Shown here: piece after piece, positions 22,390-42,373 of the stretch
Numbering within the stretch: the stretch's first letter is position 1
Layout of the letters: each line of letters begins with the position of its first letter
DNA from: Candidatus Staskawiczbacteria bacterium RIFCSPLOWO2_01_FULL_33_13
Lineage (GTDB): Bacteria > Patescibacteriota > Minisyncoccia > Minisyncoccales > Staskawiczbacteraceae
NCBI GenBank assembly: GCA_001820215.1
Contig: MHOW01000006.1
Location: 47,039-111,038 of the forward strand
Reading direction: 5' to 3'
Length of the DNA: 64,000 bases
Notes under the pieces: generated by a model
Database searches by the model: none
The model's input: the letters and a program-made list of their open reading frames with translations, nothing else
Told to the model about the DNA's origin: nothing
Translations under genes and position numbers: made by a program

Positions 22390-22551
22390 TAGACCTAGTG
22401 CATAAAGGTCTTCTTAGTGAAATGGTTAGATTTCGAGCTGCACATTTGATAGAATTTTTAGTTTTACCCTATGGGTAAGACTAAAAATTATAGCGAATTT
22501 GTGGCCGAAATATAGCCGTTGCAGTAGAAAGACCTTTATGCGCTGGGTCTA
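22390..22551. repeat. MITE family 2 variant carrying a family-1 internal module
   Basis: Terminal repeats tagacctagtgcataaaggtc / gacctttatgcgctgggtcta. Internal tttgatagaatttttagttttaccctatgggtaagactaaaaattat is homologous to the family-1 core. Confidence 0.5.
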
Positions 22552-25462: not shown

Positions 25463-25490
25463 CAAAAAAACAGCCCGCGGGCTGTTTTTT
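25463..25490. terminator. Rho-independent terminator (bidirectional)
   Basis: aaaaaaacagcccgcgggctgtttttt. GC stem flanked by A- and T-runs. Confidence 0.7.
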
Positions 25491-25500
25491 GATGTATAAC

Positions 25501-25725
25501 TTATCTATGTTTTTCAATGTTTGCTATATTGTGCTTAACTTTTATTATTTCATCACTGATTTTTTCAAATTCTTCTTGTTGCTCTTTACTGCGATGCATA
25601 AGAAATAAAAGTTTTTTATATCTTTCTTCTTTTTCTTTCAATTTTTTTATTTCATCCTTTAATACTTCTTCTAAATTTAAAACTGGCATTTCTTGGGTTT
25701 TTTCTGAATCAAAATTTTCTTCCAT
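25501..25725 (-). CDS. hypothetical small coiled-coil protein
   Basis: 74 aa, charged, K/E heptads. Last gene of the 28780->25501 minus-strand operon. Confidence 0.3.
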   Translation of the reverse strand: MEENFDSEKTQEMPVLNLEEVLKDEIKKLKEKEERYKKLLFLMHRSKEQQEEFEKISDEIIKVKHNIANIEKHR

Positions 25726-25750
25726 ATTTTTATGTATTGTGTATAAATTT

Positions 25751-28123
25751 CTATTTTGGTATTTTTACTCTGCGTTTTTTAACTGGTTTTTCTGCTGCCC
25801 TTAATTCATCTCCCCCCAACCAAATTAAGGGGTTTTTATTTTTGGAAGCATGCTCTTTAGAACTCTTCCAAGCACCCGACCAAAATCCTTTAGTAGCTAC
25901 TTTTTTTATCTCTTGGCGCGCTTTTTCATTTTCATATTCTATATTCAATGCAACTTTTTTAACTGTATACCAACTCCCTTTTGCGAAACCCGAAATCTTA
26001 CCCCAAACTCCTTTTGGCGGATTATCTTTTTGTTCTTTTTTATATTCTTCAATTCTCTCAAGTTCAGATTCTATCCCATACAACACCTCATTTTCTTGAT
26101 GTGTATCTACTATTATCTTTTGCTTCTCAATTTTGGCTTTTTGTTTTCTTTTAGCGTATCTGTCTTCATCAATTTTAATTTGCCTTTTTATGAAAGCTCC
26201 CTTTTCTTTGTCCGACATTTTGTTATATTCTTCCTCGGTTATCCCCATAAAAATTTGCATTAACATTTCATCTGTAATTTCAACACCAATCTCATCTTCG
26301 TCCTCTTCATTTTTTAATTTTTTAGGCGCCGTCTTTTTTGCATGTTTATCTTTTACTTTTTCTAATTTTTCTAATAGAAAATCATGCATTTCTTTTTTCA
26401 ATTCTTCAGGCAATCCCCATGCTTTATATGTCGACTCAAATGAATCCTCAAAAGCATTTTTAATTTCCATCCATTCTATGCCCTGATTTAAAGCATCTTT
26501 TGTATCATCTCTTGCAAACTCTATAGCTTGATTGATTGTTTTTGCTATCTCTTCGGATTTGGCTTTAGAAAGGTTATTTGATTTTAAATGCCAACCTGTA
26601 TTCTCATCTCTTTCTAACCATACTTTTGCTGGTTTTAATTCTTTTTTTTCTAAATCGTCTTTTTTTCTTGATGGTGATACCGATTCTGGTTCTACTAAAT
26701 CAGTTTTTGTATCACCCTCACCACTTTCTTTAATTTCCCTTATTTTTGATCTCACTCCCGTTGTCATTGCTGTCACTTTTTTAAATCTTTCTTGATCTTT
26801 TTCTTCACGACGCCGTATCATCATAAGCCTCATAGATTCTCCATCTAAATTTTTCAATATAATTTGCAATTCTTCTACAGTATCTGCATTTTCTATATCT
26901 TCTTTGGTAATTAGTTTTGTTCTTAAGACCTCAATTAACTCTGATTTTGTAGAGTCTATTTTATCTTGTGATACTGACTCATCCATTACTTGTGGCACTA
27001 CTAATTCTGTTTCTGAGGCATCTTTAGAATCGGGCTTTTTCTTGTCTACTTTGTCACCCGAAGGCTCTGTTAATTCTAATAATGGCCTCTCTTTAGTTTT
27101 TCTGGCGTAACCAACTACCCCATCATCATCTACATATTCAACTATCTTACTCCTTAATAATGTTGAAACTGGTTTATTATCAATTTTACCTTTAAAATAA
27201 AAATGGCTATCTATTTTATCAGAATCTCTTGAAACCTTACACTCAATAAATTCCCCATTTTCTCTAAACATAGCAAGACTTTCACCACGCAAAGAATCAC
27301 CATTACCAACTTCTTCATCTGGTTCAACTTCCTCATAATTTCGATATTTTATTGTCTCAATTCTTTGTGGTATTACTTTTTGTTTTCCATCTTTATTATA
27401 AACAAAGGATCCGTCTAAATTAAAGACTGCAAAATTCAATAATTGCTCTCCCATATTATCAGCCCCTATCTTTATTTTTTTATCTTTTTCAACAACAAGC
27501 TGTAAATATTGCTGTTTCCCAGCTTTAGAAAAATAGTAAACTTTCCTGCCCTGCAATTGCTCAAGAAGTTTTTTAGTTCTTTCTTGCCAATCTTTTTTAG
27601 TTTCCTCTTCTCCATTCTCCCGTACTTGTCTTTTTAAAGCATCTAAAAGACTCTTCTTCCCAGGTTTTGGTGATTTTTCTCCTGATTCTATTTCGGGTTT
27701 GGAATCTAAAACTGTTTCAGTGGGCATCTCGGGATGGGTTGTTGATTCTAACTTTTCTCTTCTCTTTAAATCTTCTAAACCCTGTCTCGCTGCATCAATA
27801 GTAGCTTCAGTTCGTTGTTTTTCTTTATCTGCTTCAATTAATCTTTTTAAAATTTTAACTTTTTCCTTTTTTGATTGTCCTGACATCTCAAGTAGTATTG
27901 CACCGACTTCATCAAATCTCTTTATTTCATTGGCGCTAAAATCAACCCTGTTGTGTGTATCTAAATACTCTTGGTTAATTCCCTTTAGGGCAACTATCAT
28001 TTCTTCTATTGTTAATTCTTTGGGTTTTCCAAAGTATCTCAAAATACCTAAAATACTTGTAATATTTTCTGGCTCCTGGTCTAGATATATCTCTGTTATT
28101 TTTGGTTCTTCTCCCCCTCTCAT
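25751..28123 (-). CDS. hypothetical large acidic protein (790 aa), no recognisable domain
   Basis: Long open frame. Very Lys/Glu/Asp-rich. Repeated ITxEDIxNAxTxEEL-type motif shared with the upstream 161-aa ORF. Basic C-terminus KKRRVKIPK. Confidence 0.4.
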   Translation of the reverse strand: MRGGEEPKITEIYLDQEPENITSILGILRYFGKPKELTIEEMIVALKGINQEYLDTHNRVDFSANEIKRFDEVGAILLEMSGQSKKEKVKILKRLIEADKEKQRTEATIDAARQGLEDLKRREKLESTTHPEMPTETVLDSKPEIESGEKSPKPGKKSLLDALKRQVRENGEEETKKDWQERTKKLLEQLQGRKVYYFSKAGKQQYLQLVVEKDKKIKIGADNMGEQLLNFAVFNLDGSFVYNKDGKQKVIPQRIETIKYRNYEEVEPDEEVGNGDSLRGESLAMFRENGEFIECKVSRDSDKIDSHFYFKGKIDNKPVSTLLRSKIVEYVDDDGVVGYARKTKERPLLELTEPSGDKVDKKKPDSKDASETELVVPQVMDESVSQDKIDSTKSELIEVLRTKLITKEDIENADTVEELQIILKNLDGESMRLMMIRRREEKDQERFKKVTAMTTGVRSKIREIKESGEGDTKTDLVEPESVSPSRKKDDLEKKELKPAKVWLERDENTGWHLKSNNLSKAKSEEIAKTINQAIEFARDDTKDALNQGIEWMEIKNAFEDSFESTYKAWGLPEELKKEMHDFLLEKLEKVKDKHAKKTAPKKLKNEEDEDEIGVEITDEMLMQIFMGITEEEYNKMSDKEKGAFIKRQIKIDEDRYAKRKQKAKIEKQKIIVDTHQENEVLYGIESELERIEEYKKEQKDNPPKGVWGKISGFAKGSWYTVKKVALNIEYENEKARQEIKKVATKGFWSGAWKSSKEHASKNKNPLIWLGGDELRAAEKPVKKRRVKIPK

Positions 28124-28189
28124 ATTAGTTTAAAATTTAATGATAATTTTCTATTTATCCTAACCAAACCTATTATTTATTTTTTATAA

Positions 28190-28292
28190 TAGACCCCCTG
28201 CGTAAAGATTTTTCTAGCTCAAAACATTCCTTGATCAGCAGAGCATCCCGAAGGCTGATTTTCGTAACGAAAACCTTTACGCGGTAGGTCTA
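28190..28292. repeat. MITE family 2 copy
   Basis: Terminal repeats tagaccccctgcgtaaag / ctttacgcggtaggtcta. Internal hairpin tcagcagagcatcccgaaggctga. Confidence 0.6.
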
Positions 28293-28294
28293 AC

Positions 28295-28780
28295 CTAGTT
28301 TTTTTCCGTTTCTTTTCTTTTAATTTCATCTATCTTTCCAAAAGCCATCTTTTCTATTTTTACAGATTCGTTAAGCCTTTTTTCTTGAGTCTCACTGGCT
28401 ATACCATTGCCAATAGTTTGATAAATTGCCTCAACCTCCCTCCTTAATAAATCAATCATTTTTTCAAGCTCTTCTATTGTAGTGGCGTTTTTTATATCAT
28501 TTTCTGTAATTTGATTATGTTCCTTCAATTCCAAATTTATTTTATCACTTATTTTTTTTGCTATTTTCTGCCCGATAATTATCATTTCTCCAATTTCCTT
28601 AAGCCTATCTTCTTTTTGCTGGCTTTCGCCAAGATTCTTAATGAGTGCATTCATTTCTAATTGTAGTATTTCAAACATTCTATCAATTTCTTTTATAGTT
28701 TTAGCTTTACCCAAATCTTCTATGGTAATTAGTTTTTCTGACCCTGGCCAAGACTCTGATTCTCTTATTATGTCTATCAT
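28295..28780 (-). CDS. hypothetical coiled-coil protein paralogous to a domain of the 790-aa ORF
   Basis: EKLITIEDLGKAKTIKEIDRMFEIL and ITENDIKNATTIEELEKMIDLL repeat motifs. Confidence 0.4.
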   Translation of the reverse strand: MIDIIRESESWPGSEKLITIEDLGKAKTIKEIDRMFEILQLEMNALIKNLGESQQKEDRLKEIGEMIIIGQKIAKKISDKINLELKEHNQITENDIKNATTIEELEKMIDLLRREVEAIYQTIGNGIASETQEKRLNESVKIEKMAFGKIDEIKRKETEKN

Positions 28781-28915
28781 ATAATTTAAAAATTACTTTA
28801 AACTACAAAATACTTTTAATGTTCGTTAGTAATTTAGAACGAGTGAATAAAATTAAGAAATACACCAACTTAACTATTTCTTAATTATAACATATATAAA
28901 TATAATGTCAAGTCC

Positions 28916-30849: not shown

Positions 30850-31614
30850 TTATTCAAGCAAAACATCGCCATATAAAGATGGATCTTTTTTGTACGAAAC
30901 CCATTCTGTCATATTATTTATTATGCCTTTTTCTTTACCCATAAATTCTGTTACGAAAATCCTCTCTGTTACAGAGGGGAAATTTTTAATACCTACATAA
31001 TCCGGAAAACTTGACCACCGATGACCTGTTTTCAAAAAATTAACAACTTCTTCAATCGAATGTTTTTTAATTCCCTGCTCTTTAAAATTTGGCTCGATTA
31101 AGGAAATGGGATTAGCGTGAATATAATTAATCACCATCATTAATTGATTATCGTCTTTAATAATTACAGAGCGAAACCTGTTTTGAAAAACATACCCCTT
31201 GCGCTGATGCTTTTGATTAAAATATCTTCCATATCCACTTCCTAATTTTACCATAAAATCATGTAATCCATTTTCGGTAATTTGCTTTAATAATAAATGG
31301 ATATGGTTAGGCATAAAACAAAATGCTAAAATATCAACCAATTTTTCCCTTATATCTATTTCGAGTTTTTCTATCTCTTCCAACAAATCAACCGACGACG
31401 CCCGACGTCGTCTTATTTGTAATGATATTTTTTCTTTTTGACGCTGTTCTCTGCGCTTCATTATACTTACTGGATTAGAATTATTAAATTCATATATAGA
31501 AAAAATTCCACGGTAAAAATCATCCTTATTTTTAAATATAATATTATTATCTATACCTCTTAAAATAATGTGATAAATATCACCATTAATAAATTCTTCT
31601 TTTCTGTATGGCAT
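30850..31614 (-). CDS. REP-associated tyrosine transposase / IS200-like Y1 transposase
   Basis: HUH motif (MPNHIHLLL) and catalytic Tyr (NYIHANP). About 250 aa. Flanked by inverted GC-rich REP palindromes. Confidence 0.7.
   Translation of the reverse strand: MPYRKEEFINGDIYHIILRGIDNNIIFKNKDDFYRGIFSIYEFNNSNPVSIMKRREQRQKEKISLQIRRRRASSVDLLEEIEKLEIDIREKLVDILAFCFMPNHIHLLLKQITENGLHDFMVKLGSGYGRYFNQKHQRKGYVFQNRFRSVIIKDDNQLMMVINYIHANPISLIEPNFKEQGIKKHSIEEVVNFLKTGHRWSSFPDYVGIKNFPSVTERIFVTEFMGKEKGIINNMTEWVSYKKDPSLYGDVLLE
31391..31409. repeat. REP-like palindrome (copy 2, in-frame inside the RAYT gene)
   Basis: gacgacgcccgacgtcgtc encodes RRRRASSV on the minus strand. Confidence 0.6.
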
Positions 31615-31624
31615 AATTAAGTCG

Positions 31625-31670
31625 ACGTCGGGCGTCGTCTTCGTCGTCTTCCGTCGTCTTCTTTGTCTAT
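31625..31670. repeat. REP-like palindrome (copy 3, inverted) plus 3x cgtcgtctt tandem
   Basis: gacgtcgggcgtcgtc is the reverse complement of copies 1 and 2, followed by ttcgtcgtcttccgtcgtctt. Confidence 0.6.
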
Positions 31671-32638
31671 TTTAATTGTTTTTTTGGTTTAAAATACAAT
31701 GGATCACTTAATATAGTTTTATATTTTACTGGCAAAACTATTCTTGGAATTTTCACATCACTACCTCCTTTGCGACCCATTGTAACAGGAGGCATATCTT
31801 TACCTTTTCGTAAATTATTAATAAAATCTAATTTTCGTGAATAAAGTTTTTCTGGATTCGTTAATGCGACCACCGCGCTTTCGCAAAGATCTTCTCGTGG
31901 ATCAACTTCTCGGGCATACTTAGAAACACATATTTCTGGCATAGTGGTTTCGTATAATGTAGAATCGCCACCGTCAAGGTTTCTAGACACATCTGTAAAT
32001 CTCCAGCCAAATTTTTTTGACCAATTAGCTATAACCAAATCCACTGCACCTTCAACTTTATGAAAAAATTCATGAATAAGGGTTCCCAAAAAATTTGATA
32101 CTCCCTGAAAATTTGGATTTTTTTCTTCTGACCTATAATCATTGTTTAAATCTGTTCCTTTTGGATAAATTCTAACCACATCATCATTGTACTGAACATG
32201 CCCCCTCATTTCTTCGCCAGTATTTTTATTTATTGGTTTTTTATCATCAATAAGTATATATTTTACCCTTCTTAGCGGCTCACCCTCTACTGTAGACAAA
32301 AGTTCTACTGCTCTTTTTAATTCTTCTAAATGTTGCCGCTGTAATTGTTCATTAAAGTTATACAAAGAAATTTCATGCTCTCCAATCTTTATATCAATTT
32401 GTTCTTTTGGCAAACCCTTTTCCTGCCAATATTTTTGTAACCACCAATTTTGTTGAATTAATTTTTCTCTAACAAACTTTTCTATATCAATCTGCAATGT
32501 TTTTGACGAAAAAATTACTGCCTCAAAAGCATCGCCATATCCAGGTTCTCCCTTAAAAACTTCTGTAAGACCTATGTCCTTGGCAGATTGATATTCTGGA
32601 TTTATTCCTTGATTTGGATCTTTTTCAAAACCTTCCAT
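31667..32638 (-). CDS. hypothetical protein with HExxH metallopeptidase-like motif
   Basis: LIHEFFHKVEG. No signal peptide seen. Confidence 0.35.
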   Translation of the reverse strand: MEGFEKDPNQGINPEYQSAKDIGLTEVFKGEPGYGDAFEAVIFSSKTLQIDIEKFVREKLIQQNWWLQKYWQEKGLPKEQIDIKIGEHEISLYNFNEQLQRQHLEELKRAVELLSTVEGEPLRRVKYILIDDKKPINKNTGEEMRGHVQYNDDVVRIYPKGTDLNNDYRSEEKNPNFQGVSNFLGTLIHEFFHKVEGAVDLVIANWSKKFGWRFTDVSRNLDGGDSTLYETTMPEICVSKYAREVDPREDLCESAVVALTNPEKLYSRKLDFINNLRKGKDMPPVTMGRKGGSDVKIPRIVLPVKYKTILSDPLYFKPKKQLK

Positions 32639-32664: not shown

Positions 32665-32853
32665 TAGACCTACTGCGTAAAGATTTTTCTGGTGCAAATT
32701 GAATCTTTTGGCTATAAATTACCAAAATCTTCGTGGCTTATCCAGAGGATAAGCCTTGTCAATTTTTGAAATTTCTAGATCAAAACATTCCTTGATCAGC
32801 AGAGCATCCCGAAGGCTGATTTTCGTAACGAAAACCTTTACGCAGTAGGTCTA
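32665..32853. repeat. MITE family 2 copy with nested insert
   Basis: Perfect 18-bp terminal repeats tagacctactgcgtaaag / ctttacgcagtaggtcta. Same core as 28190 plus an about 90-bp insert containing hairpin ggcttatccagaggataagcc. Confidence 0.65.
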
Positions 32854-38757: not shown

Positions 38758-38809
38758 TATAAATAGTAAAAATTAATCGATACATCAATTATATCACCTA
38801 ACAATATAT

Positions 38810-39823
38810 ATGTCAAGTACTATTATAGAAAACCCAGGTACGGGCAATGATATTTTAGATTCTGCCTTAAGGCCCAAAAAATGGCAAGATTATGTGGGCC
38901 AAGAAAAAATTAAGGACAATTTAAAAATTATTTTAACCGCAGCAAAACAAAGAGATCAATCTCCTGATCATTTATTGTTTTATGGCAATTCTGGGCTTGG
39001 CAAAACCACGCTCGCCCACTTGGTAGCCCTAGAAATGGGAAAACAAATTAGAATTACCACAGGGCCTGCTATTGAAAGAGCTGGGGATTTGGCGGCAATT
39101 TTAACTAATCTTCAAGAAGGCGATGTACTGTTTTTAGACGAGATACACAGAATGCACAAAAGCGTAGAAGAATATATTTACCCTGCAATGGAAGACTATA
39201 AGCTAAACCTGATTTTAGGCAAAGGCCCAATGGCACGCACCATGGAGTTAAAATTGCCCCGATTTACTTTAATAGGAGCTACCACACGGCCCGGCCTTTT
39301 ATCAACTCCTCTAAGAAACCGTTTTGGCGCCACTTTTCAGCTTAATTTTTACAAACCTGAGGATATTGAAAAAATAGTTGAAAAATCCGCCCAGATTTTA
39401 CAGATACAAATTGATGCTGAGGCAATTAAAATAATTGCCAAAAGATCTCGTTTTACTCCAAGAGTAGCAAACAGATTATTAAAAAGAGCACGCGACTTTG
39501 CTCAAGTAAAAAACCAAGGTATTATCACAAAAGAAATTGCAGAACAATCTTTACATTCACTGGAAGTTGATAGGATGGGTTTAGAACCAGGGGATATAAA
39601 AATTTTAATGGCTTTAATAGAAAAATTTGATGGGGGGCCCGTAGGATTGCAATCTTTAGCCGCCGCAGCAATGGAAGAAGAGGATACTATTTTAGACATC
39701 TACGAGCCGTATTTAATGCAATGCGGACTTATAGAAAGAACTCCCAAAGGCAGAATTGCCTCCCGACTTGCCTATGAACACCTGGGATTAAAATATAAAA
39801 AAGCACAGAATAATTTACTGTGA
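38810..39823 (+). CDS. ruvB: Holliday junction DNA helicase RuvB
   Basis: [13 protein letters not shown]...[11 protein letters not shown]. Sensor motifs. Confidence 0.9.
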
Positions 39824-42345: not shown

Positions 42346-42373
42346 TTGACAATAGTTTGTGAAAAAATATAAT
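42346..42373 (+). promoter_or_regulatory. near-consensus sigma70 promoter
   Basis: TTGACA, 16-nt spacer, TATAAT. Followed by a leader full of 7-bp tandem repeats. Confidence 0.45.

Follow-up and report, generated by a model that had tools for sequence, protein, structure and literature searches.

A lineage-specific set of three charged orphan genes, built by duplication, in a hypervariable slot between uvrB and rpsT of a Candidatus Staskawiczbacteria population

Charged helical scaffold and spacer proteins include the ER/K single alpha-helices, domain II of TolA and scaffolds of the EzrA/DivIVA type, and it is with these, with the J-domain co-chaperones (DnaJ/Hsp40 and large or membrane-tethered forms such as DjlA) and with the Borrelia lipoprotein OspA that the genes described here are best compared. 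The genes are three minus-strand open reading frames (ORFs) of 161, 790 and 74 amino acids (p161, p790 and p74), whose products are annotated as hypothetical, in a 64-kb stretch (the window) of contig MHOW01000006.1 (assembly GCA_001820215.1) from a Candidatus Staskawiczbacteria bacterium. In general terms p790 resembles the charged helical scaffolds in its 40% content of charged residues (K+E+R+D), its long predicted helices, its lack of catalytic motifs and the in-frame indels that vary its linkers; it differs from them in having no sequence homology to any of them, no heptad enrichment, no transmembrane (TM) anchor and no known partner-binding domain. The best-supported statement that can be made is that p161, p790 and p74 are a set of genes specific to this lineage, which was assembled by duplication and lies in a hypervariable slot of an otherwise conserved neighborhood.

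A preliminary description of this DNA, made from the sequence alone, had taken the three ORFs for real genes, and several lines of evidence agree with it: the frames lie where it had placed them, codon usage fits them, a consensus promoter stands upstream and a terminator downstream (Table 1). Scored with a codon model derived from 34 long window ORFs, the three frames reach 0.46-0.55 bits per codon (p74 alone 0.55) against a mean of 0.34 for the training ORFs, and all other frames score negative; furthermore, an open frame of 790 codons in a genome of 32% GC is unlikely to be a chance event. We regard the three as orphan genes that code for protein and look expressed, carried by a groundwater population of Candidatus Staskawiczbacteria (Parcubacteria) that is also on record as Parcubacteria group bacterium GW2011_GWA1_33_6.

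When 1.84 billion representative proteins were searched exhaustively with phmmer, p790 recovered only its own cluster and one distant relative, P0004 (1425 aa, E = 2.4e-17), whose genome was also the sole find in a scan of the GTDB representative genomes. The alignment is confined to p790 aa 144-377, the central domain being 36-37% identical to P0004 aa 487-685. The P0004 gene lies between rpsT and uvrB, in the same place as p790, and the two loci share the gene order T2SSE, TsaE, exonuclease, HAMP, Fpg, holA, PDDEXK, rpsT, big ORF, uvrB, RuvA and Mur ligase; the UvrB proteins of these genomes share 76% identity, as against 36% over about a quarter of p790 for the big proteins. Outside the central domain of p790 only weak colinear matches to P0004 were detected, one at the motif unit described below (P0004 aa 1089-1146) and another at a C-terminal LGG..AEK..R segment, where LGGDELRAAEKPVKKRR of p790 faces LGGGEKGVAEKAVRAER of P0004 (E = 2.7). 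With the S20 protein as a handle we collected 80 related metagenomic loci, and synteny led to a third carrier of the central domain, an ORF of 1135 aa beside rpsT in locus L024 (28% identity, pairwise E = 7e-14), which P0004 weakly matches at aa 1038-1052, in the unit region. At E < 1e-8, no relative of p790 or p161 was found in loci L013-L092; relatives of the window's flanking genes occur in 15-63 of these related loci. The database relatives of p161 are 99-100% identical copies only. Absence from relatives, which had been named beforehand as grounds for abandoning the proposal, is thus only partly seen: the central ~190 aa of p790 are kept in two other lineages, while p161 and p74 have no relatives outside the population.

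The slot itself could be examined in 38 related loci that contain both uvrB and rpsT. In half of these (19) the two genes are no more than 250 nt apart, leaving the slot empty, and in the other 19 it is filled by an insert of 1-5 kb. Filled loci have S20 proteins closer to that of the window than empty ones do (median identity 66% vs 59%, Mann-Whitney p = 0.0002). Most inserts consist of large ORFs that run antisense to both neighbors and have 35-44% charged residues, and they fall into several sequence groups; a few appear unrelated, for example ORFs that by eye resemble radical-SAM enzymes. These comparisons show that p161, p790 and p74 lie in a hypervariable slot, bounded by the 3' end of uvrB and the 5' end of rpsT, within a neighborhood that is otherwise rigidly conserved, and that the slot in this clade holds large, highly charged and very rapidly diverging proteins. 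In one contig of the population (L002:13336-15341), otherwise identical to the window, uvrB is split into ORFs of 385 and 260 aa, probably through a frameshift or a sequencing error.

Within the slot, the three genes are related to one another through a single helical unit. The preliminary description had proposed a motif of about 25 aa shared by p161 and p790 in four copies. Three of these, at p161 aa 17-39, p161 aa 90-112 and p790 aa 403-425, are real: they are detected by BLASTP (E = 0.006), are visible in the DNA as a 68-nt repeat family (D1, 62-71% identity), and as a regular expression they account for three matches in the 951 aa of these proteins, against two in the six-frame ORFs of the related loci, which total about 566,000 aa. 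The motif is, however, only the start of a helical unit of ~62-85 aa, and the fourth copy, LTIEEMIVALKGINQEYL near the p790 N-terminus, is at chance level (equaled by 104/1000 and 403/1000 shuffles). The halves of p161 form a gap-free alignment of 62 residues that scores 85, against 31.7 +/- 5.7 for shuffled sequences, none of 1000 of which reached it, and p161 is on this alignment a tandem duplication of the unit. Each half also aligns to p790 aa ~400-470, with scores reached by 8 and 10 of 1000 shuffles, respectively, and p74 aligns to p790 aa 386-466 with a score of 71 (shuffled 47.4 +/- 5.8, 1/1000), a 10-residue gap deleting the motif core. Together the internal repeat and the cross-alignments point to one unit of ~80 aa common to all three proteins, present twice in p161 and once each in p790, where it contains ITKEDIENADTVEELQIILKNL, and in p74, and they bear out the earlier view that the three genes are paralogous. 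A profile of the unit found nothing better than E = 0.04 when run against every slot ORF from the other genomes, and on this result the full 80-aa unit is confined to the present population.

Table 1. Features of the p161-p790-p74 locus and of related slots (window positions unless a locus is named)
Feature	Position	Strand	Remarks
p161	28295..28780	-	ORF; 161 aa; two tandem copies of shared helical unit
p161 shared unit, first copy	28526-28744	-	aa 13-85
p161 shared unit, second copy	28307-28525	-	aa 86-158
p790	25751..28123	-	ORF; 790 aa; 40% charged residues
p790 central beta-rich domain	27074..27580	-	aa ~182-350; sole part conserved in other genomes
p790 shared helical unit	26711..26971	-	aa 385-471; contains ITKEDIENADTVEELQIILKNL; DNA repeat family D1; aligns to p161 units and p74
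p790 C-terminal Trp/Gly/Lys-rich segments and basic tail KKRRVKIPK	25754..26017	-	aa 703-790; read from sequence
p74	25501..25725	-	ORF; 74 aa; shared-unit copy without 10-residue motif core
Putative sigma-70-type consensus promoter	28884..28911	-	TTGACA-16 nt-TATAAT with extended TG; 12/12 positions
Putative bidirectional intrinsic terminator	25463..25490		hairpin with A-run and U-run; common to p74 and convergent uvrB
Short MITE copy	28190..28292 (about)		p161-p790 spacer; terminal inverted repeats GACCTACYGCGTAAAG
GYKP module + DnaJ domain	L014:288-3311	-	slot ORF
GYKP module + DnaJ domain	L016:6451-8931	-	slot ORF
Small helical family 1	L041:796-1038, L073:8835-9203	-	beside large slot ORFs
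Small helical family 2	L036:5161-5409, L041:1357-1569	-	beside large slot ORFs

Searches of Pfam, NCBIfam, PHROGs, PADLOC and PDB sequences with p161, p790 and p74 yielded nothing above threshold, in keeping with the initial judgment that they belong to no known family and bear no enzymatic motif; nor did phage genomes and viral contigs give a match that would identify them as phage or anti-phage defense genes, and literature searches brought up nothing relevant to them. An SMC/Rad50-type ATPase was considered and rejected: the sole match, between p74 and NCBIfam Rad50_Sulf, scored 15.7 bits where the cutoff is 1000, and p790 has neither a match nor heptad enrichment. The term acidic, used in the preliminary description, overstates the case for proteins with a predicted isoelectric point of 5.1-6.1 and a net charge of -3 to -6, which are better called highly charged. 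Likewise, the designation coiled-coil does not hold for p790, amphipathic heptad helices being supported in p161 and p74 only: in a crude register test the observed patterning was reached by 0/200 shuffles for p161, 3/200 for p74 and 78/200 for the whole of p790. In p161 it is located exactly at the motif helices, the motif opening an amphipathic helix.

The beta-rich center earlier noticed in p790 reappears, at low confidence, in both AlphaFold models, that of the full protein and that of the central domain, the latter being a run of beta-hairpins (mean predicted local distance difference test score, pLDDT, 45.7). Foldseek searches of the PDB with both models gave nothing with E < 0.2 (best E = 0.2, TM-score at most 0.23). 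A profile of the central domain weakly matched an engineered Borrelia OspA with extra hairpins (E = 0.017, bias 7.6, domain E 0.11). OspA resembles the center of p790 in being a charged, K/E/D/T-rich succession of beta-hairpins, but it carries the signal peptide and lipobox of a lipoprotein, and the match is dominated by composition and without a counterpart in fold; we take it as a hint of a charged beta-hairpin run, as the model also suggests, and not as homology. An OspA-like lipoprotein was rejected on the same grounds, the N-terminus of p790, MRGGEEPKITEIY, having no hydrophobic leader.

These observations bear on the proposal, closest to the direction first taken, that the gene set encodes a secreted or surface protein for interaction with the host in episymbiosis, under diversifying selection. 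The extreme divergence relative to the neighboring genes, the hypervariability of the locus and the likeness of the predicted hairpin run to the charged repeats of OspA would all accord with it. However, no hydrophobic N-terminal leader, lipobox or TM segment is evident in the sequence of any of the three proteins, though no signal-peptide predictor was run (the maximum Kyte-Doolittle 19-residue average of p790 is 0.78), and no adhesin, lectin or enzyme domain is present. The Trp/Gly-rich C-terminal segments of p790 were considered for membrane targeting and set aside, as they are not among its most amphipathic segments and no TM segment accompanies them. Finally, the T2SSE/pilus-type ATPase cluster nearby, corresponding to the T4SS-like cluster with which co-occurrence had been suggested, is equally present beside empty and filled slots, so that there is no specific co-occurrence. 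The analysis gave no evidence for the cytoskeletal or host-interaction roles suggested at the outset, and on balance we consider a host-interaction role quite unlikely.

Another alternative is that the ORFs are cargo or debris of mobile elements in an insertion hot spot, non-functional or decaying and with no cellular role, and here the transcriptional signals, the mobile elements and the variation within the population have to be weighed together. The consensus sequence that precedes the p161 ATG by 104 nt would act as a promoter; both strands of the window contain just two other perfect TTGACA-N16/17-TATAAT matches, at 38788-38816 (-) and 42346-42373 (+). The strong terminator reported earlier at the other end stands up to calculation, with a folding energy of -23.5 kcal/mol (z = -5.75; 0/200 shuffles equally stable), and has the GC-rich hairpin followed by a U-run that defines Rho-independent terminators (CAGCCCGCGGGCUG then U7); as an A-run and a U-run flank the hairpin, it could serve both p74 and the convergent uvrB. 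A simple consensus scan for terminators overlooked this hairpin, and in one contig (L006:13300-14053) the sequence departs from that of the window in its loop (window about 25477) and runs into a truncated Y1 transposase ORF, the cause being either rearrangement at this site or chimeric assembly.

Between p161 and p790 lies a spacer of 171 nt, in which no candidate promoter was found, the only strong one being upstream of p161; the gap from the p790 stop to p74 is 25 nt. The arrangement is compatible with a single p161-p790-p74 operon, having one promoter, one terminator and no promoter in the spacer, and such an operon is plausible but unproven. The spacer contains, as had been recognized before, a miniature inverted-repeat transposable element (MITE), a class recognized by terminal inverted repeats, several genomic copies and a lack of coding capacity; further copies lie at 22392-22549 and 32667-32851. 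The 16-nt terminal inverted repeats are conserved over the three copies (6 repeat-end matches vs 0.04 expected), the right halves of two being near-identical, and as RNA the spacer is predicted to form a long hairpin (-40.6 kcal/mol, z = -2.9). Each of the three copies adjoins an ORF without a relative in the 80 related loci. A Y1 transposase gene (IS200/IS605-type, PF01797) near the MITEs, at about 30853-31671 (-), could encode the mobilizing enzyme of this MITE family.

These mobile elements, the orphan status of the three genes, a premature stop in the p790 gene of one contig and the emptiness of the slot in half of the relatives might all be read as marks of a decaying insert. Against this, a 2.4-kb frame with native codon usage has been kept open in a genome of low GC content, the gene set is framed by a consensus promoter and a terminator, the phage and defense-system libraries gave no match, and the central domain is retained colinearly, at 28-37% identity, in P0004, which fills the same slot, and in the L024 ORF next to rpsT. 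Variation within the population likewise argues against decay, the indels being in frame. The 790-aa frame is kept in all contigs except GW2011_GWA1_33_6. P0001 and P0003 are 97-99% identical variants. Among protein variants from other read sets, stretches of 15 aa (aa 475-489) and 61 aa (aa 635-695) are missing without loss of frame, and several substitutions cluster at aa 714-721. These changes all fall in the charged C-terminal half; a single substitution is the only change in the N-terminal half, to which the central domain belongs. This pattern fits a maintained reading frame with length-tolerant linkers, and we think a non-functional or decaying insert distinctly improbable.

In the slot proteins of related Parcubacteria we detected an undescribed module of the form W..LS..EK ... 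F(Y)..L..GYKPEDIKKRGFF, hereafter the GYKP module, in at least 13 large charged ORFs from 12 loci (L014, L016, L020, L028, L033, L035, L036, L039, L041, L043, L044 and L046). The module has no Pfam model. Proteins bearing it resemble p790 in position, orientation, size and charge content, and those of L014 and L043 also carry an I-x-N-A-x-S/T-x-x-E-L-Y motif, as p790 does; p790 differs in having the central beta domain in place of the GYKP module, a candidate match at aa 630-683 having been rejected (with the first profile, E = 35 for the whole protein and 0.11 for the domain; none below E = 1 after three iterations). When a motif profile built only from the window and P0004 copies was run against 5,319 six-frame ORFs (586,000 residues), the best non-seed matches were the slot proteins of L014 (E = 0.006) and L043 (E = 0.11), and a reciprocal profile from P0004, L014 and L043 ranked p790 first (E = 0.27). 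These profiles offer a suggestive but marginal link of the slot proteins as one family. Elsewhere, two small conserved families of helical proteins of ~60-80 aa accompany large slot ORFs, and neither resembles p74 by eye.

Two of the slot proteins bearing the GYKP module pass the Pfam gathering score for DnaJ, that of L014 with 69.3 bits and an HPD motif and that of L016 with 31.8 bits. In light of these bona fide J domains, and of the resemblance of the shared motif to the LG...A(S/T)..E(I/L)...(Y/F)..L of J-domain helices I-II, we tested the unit for J-domain ancestry. Under this alternative, p161, p790 and p74 would be degenerate Hsp40-type co-chaperones, their unit representing a decayed J domain in which the motif corresponds to helix II and the later 'RLKEI/RFKKV' stretch to helix III, and the proteins would recruit DnaK or compete for it. 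Both J-domain slot proteins combine the domain with long charged regions, those of L016 and L024 add a Gly-rich TM segment, and L024 has a 'HYYKLLGV' (domain E = 0.23). The best profile-profile alignment sets the shared motif in register with J-domain helix II, and by our own count the spacing from LG to 'LKEI' in p161 equals that from LG to 'FKEI' in E. coli DnaJ. Yet this alignment has an hhalign probability of 0.3% (P = 0.19), a home-made J-domain hidden Markov model gives p161 a domain E of 3.9 and p790 no domain below E = 10, and Pfam scans of the three proteins return no DnaJ (PF00226) even at E <= 1, so that they do not qualify as members by profile. No HPD tripeptide occurs in any of the three, the sole HP[DE] match being an HPE at p790 aa 130, outside the unit. 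Lacking a significant J signal, HPD and TM segment alike, and with a central beta domain and an ~80-aa unit that have no counterpart in described J proteins, p790 and its paralogs are in our view very doubtful candidates for decayed J-domain proteins.

Returning to the lineage-specific gene set, we tentatively propose, as the leading explanation though one that we would not yet call probable, that it encodes a non-enzymatic cytoplasmic scaffold in which the two small paralogs pair with the unit of p790 through amphipathic helices. The non-enzymatic reading follows from the absence of family matches and from the presence of only 1 Cys and 8 His in the 790 aa of p790. The latter would be the local version of the slot protein, with a small conserved core rich in beta-hairpins, one helix-loop-helix unit of ~85 aa and long charged helical or disordered linkers of free length. 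Local duplication of the unit would have given rise to p161, with two copies, and p74, with one lacking the motif core, and through the amphipathic heptad helices of this unit the two small proteins would bind one another and the corresponding part of p790. Such pairing may form, cap or regulate an elongated charged scaffold in the cytoplasm.

Several points weigh against this proposal. Confidence in the AlphaFold predictions is low, with a pLDDT of 42.3 for full-length p790 as a single sequence and the mean given above for the central domain from a two-sequence alignment. The similarity of p161 to p790 is only modestly significant, being reached by 8-25 of 1000 shuffles (p about 0.01-0.025), and the postulated pairing of units derives from paralogy and the heptad pattern. 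As p161 and p74 are restricted to this population, they may be young and dispensable, and the MITE hairpin in the spacer could uncouple the expression of p161 and p790. Ten contigs recovered from different samples are at least 99.9% identical in DNA over the operon, so that selection is not measurable. In the GW2011_GWA1_33_6 contig (L010), an AAA to TAA change at window position 27379 turns K249 of p790 into a stop, with two substitutions within 40 nt, and GenBank therefore lists the gene as fragments of 248 and 513 aa. The motif links of p790 to the slot proteins of L014 and L043 are, as noted, marginal.

A more far-reaching proposal, which we consider unlikely though worth stating, is that the uvrB-rpsT gap of this Parcubacteria clade encodes an undescribed superfamily of giant, hyper-charged and hyper-evolving cytoplasmic proteins tied together by the I-x-N-A-x-S/T-x-x-E-L motif, some with functional J domains and some with TM anchors, of which p790 with its private paralogs p161 and p74 would be a subtype built on a new beta-hairpin domain. 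Such a superfamily might provide a diversifying scaffold, linked to DnaK or to the envelope, that is found only in ultra-small episymbiotic bacteria.

Genomes of the Candidate Phyla Radiation are very small and streamlined. In this window about 3.5 kb, preceded by one of its three strongest-looking promoters, goes to proteins without relatives, and the content of the slot changes between sister lineages as every flanking gene stays fixed. The gene family is new in that no described family can accommodate it; new biology or a new mechanism is not thereby demonstrated. If the slot proteins are not one family, these would be ordinary orphan genes in an insertion hot spot. If they are one fast-evolving family, they would mark a lineage-specific function under unusual evolutionary pressure, and two new domains, the central beta domain and the GYKP module, would await definition.

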